A stretch of DNA of 33,060 nucleotides from Escherichia coli (GTDB lineage: Bacteria > Pseudomonadota > Gammaproteobacteria > Enterobacterales > Enterobacteriaceae), in assembly GCF_003334315.1 (NCBI RefSeq), contig NZ_QOWR01000052.1; one strand, written 5' to 3'. Numbering within the stretch: the stretch's first letter is position 1; each line of letters begins with the position of its first letter. The translations under genes and the position numbers were made by a program. Under the pieces are notes generated by a model. It saw only the letters and a list, made by a program, of their open reading frames with translations. It had not been told where the DNA came from and did not search any database. Below are positions 7,634 through 7,915 of this stretch, in pieces.

Positions 7634-7639
7634 CCACTT

Positions 7640-7826
7640 GCCGGATGCGGCGTGAACGCCTTATCCGGTCTACCGATCCGGCACCAATGTAGGCCTGATA
7701 AGACGCGCCAGCGTCGCATCAGGCATCATGCACCAATTGCCGGATGCGGCGTAAACGCCTTATCCGGCCTACGGTTCGGACTATTTGTAGGCACGATAAG
7801 ACGCGACAGCGTCGCATCGGGCATGG
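7640..7826. repeat. REP/BIME cluster: four repetitive extragenic palindromic units in alternating types
   Basis: Units GCCGGATGCGGCGTGAACGCCTTATCCGG (7640-7675) and GCCGGATGCGGCGTAAACGCCTTATCCGG (7739-7772) alternate with AGGCCTGATAAGACGCGCCAGCGTCGCATCAGGC (7690-7727) and AGGCACGATAAGACGCGACAGCGTCGCATCGGGC (7788-7826); each is an imperfect palindrome. Confidence 0.85.
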
Positions 7827-7884
7827 TTTGCCAGATACGTCATAGATCTAAATGCCACTGAATAAAGTTTTAGTTGCCGTTCTT

Positions 7885-7910
7885 CCCGCCTGTCAGGGGC
7901 GGGTTTTTTT
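7885..7910 (+). terminator. Rho-independent terminator downstream of fadBA
   Basis: Stem CCCGCC / GGCGGG with loop TGTCAGG followed by TTTTTTT (7904-7910); lies 6 bp from the fre stop on the opposite strand. Confidence 0.7.
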
Positions 7911-7915
7911 ATATC

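Follow-up and report, generated by a model that had tools for sequence, protein, structure and literature searches.

A BIME-2 repeat cluster and the small RNA FadZ in the gap between fadA and fre of Escherichia coli

Repetitive extragenic palindromic (REP) sequences are defined by a GTAG tetranucleotide at their foot (CTAC on the other strand), and they are found in bacterial interspersed mosaic elements (BIMEs) of two kinds (PMC3333891). BIME-1 elements occur as single copies of Z1 and Y units with a long L linker that often includes a site for integration host factor (IHF), whereas BIME-2 elements consist of Z2 and Y units in tandem copies, with short linkers and a copy number that varies among strains (PMC3333891). 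Here we describe a stretch of 33,060 nucleotides from Escherichia coli (contig NZ_QOWR01000052.1 of assembly GCF_003334315.1; this whole stretch is called the window below), in which a BIME-2 cluster and the small RNA (sRNA) FadZ lie one after the other in the gap between the convergent genes fadA and fre.

There is a published entry for this locus in K-12 strain W3110, where Table DS3 of Sutormin et al. lists it as 'BIMEs2, 280 bp, fadA>-<fre' (PMC6379681). The same work mapped gyrase cleavage sites in the K-12 allele, three with oxolinic acid and one with rifampicin plus ciprofloxacin (PMC6379681). A second array of the same make-up is REP325, which gave rise to the naRNA4 family, the naRNAs being described as 'a Z2 and a Y PU', or palindromic unit (preprint 10.64898/2026.03.23.713779). 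That preprint found no nucleoid role for REP325 and recast the array as a partly Rho-dependent terminator and mRNA stabiliser.

FadZ (STnc790) was predicted from RIL-seq data and verified by Hfq-dependent northern blot in E. coli by Bar et al. 2021, who placed its 3' end at 4,027,232 and left its 5' end unplaced (PMC8175672). Liu et al. 2023 reported an RNA of ~40 nt in Salmonella and E. coli alike, conserved from E. coli to Yersinia (PMC10703908). As they showed in Salmonella, RNase E cuts FadZ out of the 3' untranslated region (3'UTR) of fadBA at conserved uridines (RN/WUU, with the slash marking the cut), and its accumulation depends on Hfq (PMC10703908). Its targets are the porins OmpD, OmpC, OmpN and OmpS, which it represses through base pairing in the 5' coding regions of their mRNAs, and it is under the control of the fadBA promoter, on which FadR acts as a repressor and CRP as an activator (PMC10703908).

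The gap between fadA and fre spans 7634-7915 of the window (282 bp), exactly the interval delimited in a preliminary description of this DNA, as judged from the sequence and its list of open reading frames (ORFs). That description had reported a REP cluster followed by a hairpin and T-run, which is confirmed, and its reading of the locus is largely right, except that its remark on IHF is wrong for a BIME-2 element and that FadZ went unrecognised. We put at roughly 85% the probability that the gap consists of a BIME-2 cluster, made of four REP hairpins and a truncated fifth unit, followed by FadZ, and that these elements act on the two strands in the manner proposed below. The features are listed here, with the flanking genes and two overlapping matches at the end.

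7640-7673, plus strand: REP1, Y type (GCCGGATGCGGCG..CGCCTTATCCGGTCTAC), with its CTAC tail at 7670-7673 (inverted repeat; direct-repeat family D1)
7674-7688, no strand: tail-to-tail linker of 15 nt between REP1 and REP2 (sequence; IHF consensus scan negative)
7689-7724, minus strand: REP2, Z2 type, inverted, with GTAG at 7689-7692 (Z2 pattern match; inverted repeat I4)
7725-7738, no strand: head-to-head linker of 14 nt between REP2 and REP3 (sequence)
7739-7772, plus strand: REP3, Y type, with its CTAC tail at 7769-7772 (Y pattern match; inverted repeat I3)
7773-7786, no strand: tail-to-tail linker of 14 nt between REP3 and REP4 (sequence)
7787-7822, minus strand: REP4, Z2 type, inverted, with a slightly degenerate stem (GGCACGAT / ATCGGGC) (Z2 pattern match; copy of family D2, 90% identity)
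7830-7839, plus strand: truncated fifth unit, the left arm of a Y REP, GCCAGATACG (GCCGGATGCG in other strains) (window compared with alleles L003, L005, L006 and L081)
7840-7867, plus strand: poorly conserved, unstructured spacer that ends at a predicted RNase E site, AG/UUUU (fold; species columns)
7868-7910, plus strand: FadZ sRNA, about 43 nt, with seed at 7868-7884 (UUUUAGUUGCCGUUCUU), hairpin at 7885-7903 and U7 at 7904-7910 (conservation, terminator fold, literature)
7885-7903 and 7904-7910, plus strand: hairpin, then a run of seven T (top match of the terminator scan; -13.9 kcal/mol)
6470-7633, plus strand: fadA, with stop codon TAA at 7631-7633 (ORF list)
7916-7918, minus strand: stop codon of fre, TGA on the minus strand (ORF end at 7916; RefSeq annotation of fre in matching strains)
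7692-7769, minus strand: match to Rfam RF02564 naRNA4, made of REP3 and REP2 on the fre-sense strand (92.1 bits against a gathering score of 59.5)
7652-7861, plus strand: ORF of 69 amino acids with a GTG start (ORF list)

There are four REP palindromes between 7640 and 7822, in the order Y, Z2, Y, Z2 and with alternating orientation, so the cluster of four units in alternating types that had been claimed is borne out by repeats, unit patterns and folding alike. Their feet are in the expected places, with CTAC at 7670 and 7769 and GTAG at 7689 and 7787, and together they build two tandem units that are spaced 98-99 bp apart and share 89-90% identity. REP1 starts 6 nt past the fadA TAA, at a junction (TAA-CCACTT-GCCGGATG) that is common to all E. 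coli alleles read. The estimate of about 190 bp of REP sequence was close to the measured span of 183 bp. REPs and terminator are both present as described, but the gap is not filled by them: REPs account for 183 of its 282 bp and 7823-7884 is non-REP sequence, with no significant structure in the fold of 7826-7884 (z = -0.42).

Each REP (34-36 nt) by itself forms a hairpin with an internal loop in the stem, at energies of -15.7 to -21.9 kcal/mol over both strands. On the plus and minus strands, respectively, the values are -19.6 and -17.2 kcal/mol for REP1, -21.9 and -21.4 for REP2, -21.3 and -20.9 for REP3, and -16.3 and -15.7 for REP4; for each hairpin, none of 200 shuffles was as stable. 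The whole gap is likewise more structured than its shuffles (z = -6.9 on the plus strand, z = -4.7 on the minus strand). Folding of the RNA from both strands, which had been proposed as a check, thus reveals palindromic structure on each of them. Folded as one plus-strand RNA, the whole gap gives a minimum-energy structure that is long and nested rather than a row of four local hairpins: the outer units, REP1 and REP4, are paired with each other, as are the inner units, REP2 and REP3. This pairing results from the partial complementarity between Y and inverted Z2 units (inverted repeat I2, 88% over 17 nt).

With 0.23 occurrences of the REP tail motif expected in the 33-kb window, five were counted, four of them inside the fadA-fre gap. 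There is only one other REP-like match in the window, an isolated variant of the Y type, GTCGGATGCGGCGTAAACGCCTTATCCGACTTAC, at 26714-26747 on the plus strand, in which TTAC replaces the CTAC tail. Used as a query, the REP sequence finds a median of at least 38 places per E. coli genome, which points to many dispersed copies.

The cluster is a BIME-2 element by the published definition, since its units are Z2 and Y, its linkers are 14-15 nt long and it lacks an IHF consensus. A scan of the gap with unit patterns matched Y and Z2 units and returned no match to a Z1 unit, and the Y+Z2 covariance model aligned over its full length. Similarly, the IHF consensus WATCAANNNNTTR was not found in the gap on either strand when up to one mismatch was allowed, and an IHF site there was rejected on this result. 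The features that the cluster shares with other BIME-2 elements are Y and Z2 units alternating in orientation, tandem arrangement, short linkers, variable copy number and, in its K-12 allele, cleavage by gyrase. The differences are not essential ones: there are two full units here as opposed to three in K-12, REP4 is slightly degenerate, and the array ends in a truncated fifth unit. The preliminary description had stated that BIMEs can bind IHF and DNA gyrase. Since IHF binding belongs to BIME-1, its first half is inapplicable to this cluster, whereas its second half, judged from the cleavage sites mapped in the K-12 allele, should hold.

The hairpin and T-run at the far end of the gap, together with the preceding 17 nt, are the published FadZ RNA. 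This is the most conserved and best characterised element of the gap, and it had been passed over as a canonical hairpin and T-run, a wording that is accurate for the shape of an intrinsic terminator but is incomplete for an sRNA that also includes the 17 nt upstream. Over 51 species, the major-allele frequency per column is 0.92 at positions -17 to -1, 1.00 in the hairpin including its loop and 0.98 in the T-run, as compared with 0.60-0.62 at fourfold degenerate sites of the flanking genes and 0.52 just upstream (-30 to -18). A plain terminator does not require a fixed loop. The identity of the block as a regulatory sRNA, as established in the literature, explains this conservation. The Salmonella arizonae FadZ is identical in the seed, the hairpin and the first six T, and the Yersinia pestis FadZ is recognisable.

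The predicted RNase E motif AG/UUUU is at 7866-7871, with the cut between 7867 and 7868, and its uridines are conserved. In MG1655, Term-seq finds an abundant 3' end at the sixth U, which corresponds to window position 7909 (MG1655 4027235, minus strand); it is represented by 76,678 reads in LB at an optical density (OD) of 2.0 and by 31,838 reads in M63 glucose at OD 0.4, and it is uncalled in LB at OD 0.4 (PMC7815308). The best duplex of the seed in MG1655 ompC is at +72 to +81 of the coding sequence, in the expected 5' coding region, with -15.4 kcal/mol, an energy that 24 of 300 shuffled seeds equal or better. Rfam has no family that matches FadZ, and the sole match there is a sub-threshold chance match to anti-hemB. 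FadZ as a primary transcript from a promoter in the gap was rejected, as no sigma-70-like site was found on either strand of 7400-8200, which is weak negative evidence.

Two further observations concern the conditions under which this 3' end is seen. FadZ is undetectable in Salmonella grown in glucose minimal medium, as opposed to the strong 3' end of MG1655 in M63 glucose, and this discrepancy could reflect the species, the medium or a second source of FadZ. The same Term-seq tables also contain a strong 3' end at MG1655 4024970 (minus strand), equivalent to about 10174 on the plus strand of the window, with 61,964 and 27,317 reads. It is just beyond the start of ubiD, on the opposite strand, in the divergent region between ubiD and rfaH, and its ratio of LB OD 2.0 to M63 reads is nearly equal to that of the FadZ end.

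The element in the window resembles the described FadZ in its position at the 3' end of the fadBA 3'UTR, its seed, hairpin and U-run, and its 5' junction of the RNase E type. There are four U at this junction in the window and three in K-12. In Salmonella, the 196-nt 3'UTR upstream of FadZ is without Y/Z2 REPs, whereas the precursor in the strain studied here carries four REP hairpins. The same plan of a short Hfq-bound RNA, made of a seed and the terminator of the parental mRNA, is seen in other sRNAs that RNase E processes from 3'UTRs, such as CpxQ and SdhX. For RNAs of this kind, a repeat array in the stretch that separates stop codon and sRNA is not known to have been reported.

The T-run of the FadZ hairpin is present on the plus strand only; on the minus strand the terminator scan and the fold give a hairpin without a U-run, and the scan found no minus-strand terminator in the gap. 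Therefore, the terminator serves fadBA and not fre. A bidirectional terminator was rejected for the lack of a minus-strand U-run and on the K-12 data, which show Rho-dependent read-through. Transcription of fre instead reads on until Rho-dependent termination, as seen in K-12. Adams et al. list no primary 3' end for fre in that strain (PMC7815308). They report a Rho-dependent region on the fre-sense strand whose best coordinate is MG1655 4027855 (plus strand), 246 nt inside fadA, where bicyclomycin raises the downstream coverage from 20 to 243 (Rho score 10.3, p = 7e-27) (PMC7815308). Since this region is inside fadA, fre transcription in K-12 crosses the complement of the hairpin, the antisense of FadZ and the REPs. 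The Rho regions were located by 800-nt windows, and Term-seq dropped multi-mapping reads, so that ends inside REPs are invisible (PMC7815308). Expression of fre is about 16-fold above that of fadA (RNA-seq baseMean 4307 versus 273; preprint 10.64898/2026.03.23.713779).

There are matches to the region in all 5,426 of 5,426 complete E. coli genomes, and it is 100% identical to that of E. coli strain HS30-1. Alleles with two REPs have a gap of 182-191 bp, those with four, the window among them, have one of 271-282 bp, and the K-12 allele with its six REPs has one of 380 bp. In an even sample of rows along the ranking of roughly 5,480 E. coli records, some 63% of alleles have two REPs, 27% have four and 8% probably have six, and no sampled E. 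coli allele is entirely without REPs. At least three unit types (A, B and C) make up the alleles, in which whole units have been shuffled, gained, lost and recombined. Thus the variable REP copy number that had been predicted from a comparison of strains is found. In one further allele, L081 (Escherichia sp. MOD1-EC7003; gap of 285 bp), the second unit is not Z2 and is instead a shorter, different palindrome, GTAGGCCGGATAAGCGTAAGCGCATCCGGC, so that its array looks like an 'atypical BIME' that mixes unit types.

The gap was also described as structured non-coding DNA that is crossed by spurious ORFs, a view upheld by the folding, by poor ORF conservation and by the annotation, as RefSeq places no gene inside the gap in any strain examined. 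The MG1655 record, as consulted here, lists coding sequences alone at the locus, and the locus is unmentioned in the RepRanger supplements. The 69-amino-acid ORF, whose conservation would have spoken for a protein, differs in length and sequence among E. coli alleles: it has 66 amino acids and another C-terminus in K-12, has 40 amino acids in L003 and is absent in L002. These changes in length and frame arise because unit gains are of 98 bp and shift the frame.

The convergent layout of fadA and fre is kept across Enterobacterales. A degenerate pattern for the Fre C-terminus was scanned over species-representative genomes, which allowed us to extract 87 gaps, 78 of which are no longer than 700 bp. 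In Escherichia, the slot between the fadA stop codon and FadZ is occupied by Y/Z2 REPs. In several Citrobacter, Kosakonia, Lelliottia and Enterobacter genomes it contains other GTAG-footed palindromic units, and in Salmonella arizonae, Phytobacter and others it holds an element like the enterobacterial repetitive intergenic consensus (ERIC), which was found by means of ERIC primer sequences in nine gaps versus 4 of 1,560 shuffled controls. A hairpin of -12 kcal/mol or better is present in the slot of 51 of the 54 species that have at least 16 nt there, including species with gaps of 70-83 bp. In Erwinia and Pantoea, a bare terminator follows the stop codon by 42-70 nt, the sequence upstream of it is different and there are no REPs.

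Two kinds of exceptional gaps were also observed. There is a gene-sized insertion in gaps of 1.7-2.9 kb in Citrobacter (L030, L046, L068, L079 and L112) and in Superficieibacter (L047 and L011). The 53-bp gap of L024 ('Escherichia sp. ESNIH1') has no FadZ block and a different hairpin, despite its genus label.

The architecture of the locus suggests how its two strands might be used. On the plus strand, fadBA transcription, repressed by FadR and activated by CRP, would run through the REPs and end at the FadZ terminator. A cut by RNase E at AG/UUUU would then free FadZ, which together with Hfq would repress the mRNAs of porins, ompC among them. With FadZ and its terminator hairpin gone, the REP hairpins could form the 3' shield of the fadBA mRNA against 3'-to-5' exonucleases. 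REPs within 15 nt of a stop codon are reported, in work cited by PMC12306157, to stall terminating ribosomes and to lower translation. Perhaps REP1, at its distance of 6 nt from the stop codon, also dampens FadA translation. On the minus strand, fre transcription would pass the hairpin, FadZ and the REPs before Rho ends it, and the fre mRNA would probably owe its trimmed, stable 3' end to the REP hairpins. As DNA, the BIME-2 element would be a gyrase site between two converging transcription units. Its units may be gained and lost through recombination between tandem copies or through the REP-associated transposase. Five of these steps, namely termination at FadZ, release by RNase E, porin repression, gyrase cleavage and read-through of fre to Rho, are documented in K-12 or Salmonella and are carried over to this strain by analogy.

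Other identities can be considered for the parts of this locus. The REP palindromes, with their Y unit, are also a trait of IHF-binding BIME-1 (RIP/RIB) elements, but those elements are marked by a Z1 unit, by occurrence as a single copy and by a long L linker that bears an IHF site, none of which has a counterpart in this cluster; with the short linkers, the negative IHF scan and the filing of the locus as BIME-2 in the published table, we see next to no chance that it is one. The Y+Z2 pair at 7692-7769 (minus strand) could instead be a gene of the naRNA4 type, encoding a processed HU-binding RNA that condenses the nucleoid. In support of this, the match to the covariance model there is well above the gathering score, and the fre-sense strand is transcribed across the equivalent of this interval in K-12. 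Like REP325, the cluster is a tandem Y+Z2 array above the RF02564 threshold, and the stabiliser role in a 3'UTR that is now ascribed to REP325 is the one we propose here; unlike REP325, which has 12 hairpins within the yjdMN operon between tandem genes, it has four hairpins between convergent genes and is located upstream of an sRNA. The RF02564 model in effect describes a Y+Z2 REP pair, taken from REP325, so any BIME-2 will match it. Moreover, in recent work from the laboratory of the original naRNA4 description, neither REP325 nor naRNAs affect nucleoid volume, and Hi-C shows no REP-REP contacts (preprint 10.64898/2026.03.23.713779), and we consider a naRNA4-type gene very improbable. A generic fadBA terminator without any sRNA function would have the canonical terminator shape that is seen here, but it is hard to believe in one, given that neither the loop nor the 17 nt upstream varies among genera while neutral sites are near 0.6, and that FadZ has been established by northern blots, by its dependence on RNase E and Hfq, and by compensatory mutagenesis (PMC8175672, PMC10703908). 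Least credible of all is a real small protein from the 69-amino-acid ORF. An open frame with a GTG start is present, yet this start is within the REP1 stem and without a ribosome-binding site, no RefSeq gene is found there, and the product is of changing length and C-terminus, or missing, among E. coli strains. The ORF is an artefact of translating REPs.

The function of the array itself calls for more caution, and several points weigh against the mechanism proposed above. The experimental evidence comes entirely from K-12, which has a six-REP allele, or from Salmonella, which has no Y/Z2 REPs, and not from this four-REP strain. The roles of the REPs as stabiliser, damper of translation and attenuator are extrapolated from work on other loci, and REP-terminal mRNAs are no longer-lived on average, with REP effects depending on context (preprint 10.64898/2026.03.23.713779). 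The point at which fre transcription stops relative to the REPs is imprecise, owing to the 800-nt Rho windows and the discarded multi-mapping reads, and the energy of the seed-ompC duplex is marginal. In addition, with some 63% of E. coli having two REPs and Erwinia and Pantoea having none, REP number is clearly not critical. These points leave room for another explanation, in which recombination or the REP-associated transposase has carried the array, as selfish or neutral repeat DNA, into a tolerant spot where it has no role particular to the locus, and in which only FadZ and its terminator matter. It would fit the presence or absence of whole units and the shuffling of unit types among strains, the unrelated repeats or near-empty slots of other genera, the want of any general half-life effect of terminal REPs (preprint 10.64898/2026.03.23.713779) and the decay of REP4 and of the fifth unit. 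It is less easily reconciled with the stable hairpin kept between the fadA stop codon and FadZ in 51 of 54 species, even in gaps of 70-83 bp, with the presence of REPs in every sampled E. coli allele, with the invariant 6-nt distance from the stop codon in the alleles read, or with the gyrase cleavage mapped in the K-12 allele (PMC6379681). We therefore consider a neutral array possible, though unlikely, and prefer the reading in which the BIME-2 cluster and FadZ both contribute.

One speculative extension of the preferred reading is that the slot may be under selection to hold a structured 'bumper', whose upstream hairpins would protect the fadBA mRNA after RNase E has removed FadZ. Different genera might have recruited different mobile repeats for this purpose, with Escherichia using Y/Z2 REPs, Salmonella and Phytobacter using ERIC-like elements, and Citrobacter, Kosakonia and Lelliottia using palindromic units of other types. 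In E. coli, the polymorphism of two, four or six REPs might then tune the ratio of FadZ to FadBA and the reach of the more highly expressed fre transcript, antisense, across FadZ. We offer this idea as a doubtful one, with the odds well against it.

Elsewhere in the window, there is a full-length match to the Rfam family RF02757 'Erse small RNA' at 14915-15166 on the minus strand (319.5 bits against a gathering score of 138).

All of the components described here are already known: REP and BIME clusters are textbook material, the locus is in a catalogue of BIME-2 elements, and FadZ has been published. Absent from both FadZ papers are the REP array of variable copy number in the E. coli precursor, the unrelated repeats that take its place elsewhere, and the fre transcript that runs antisense across FadZ. 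The repeat array or the antisense read-through from fre may affect FadZ output, which the evidence here allows but does not strongly support. If either of them does, then this locus would be a modest but real case of mobile repeats tuning an sRNA. In any event, to call the hairpin and T-run 'a terminator' is to overlook a conserved regulatory RNA that ties fatty-acid degradation to porin expression.

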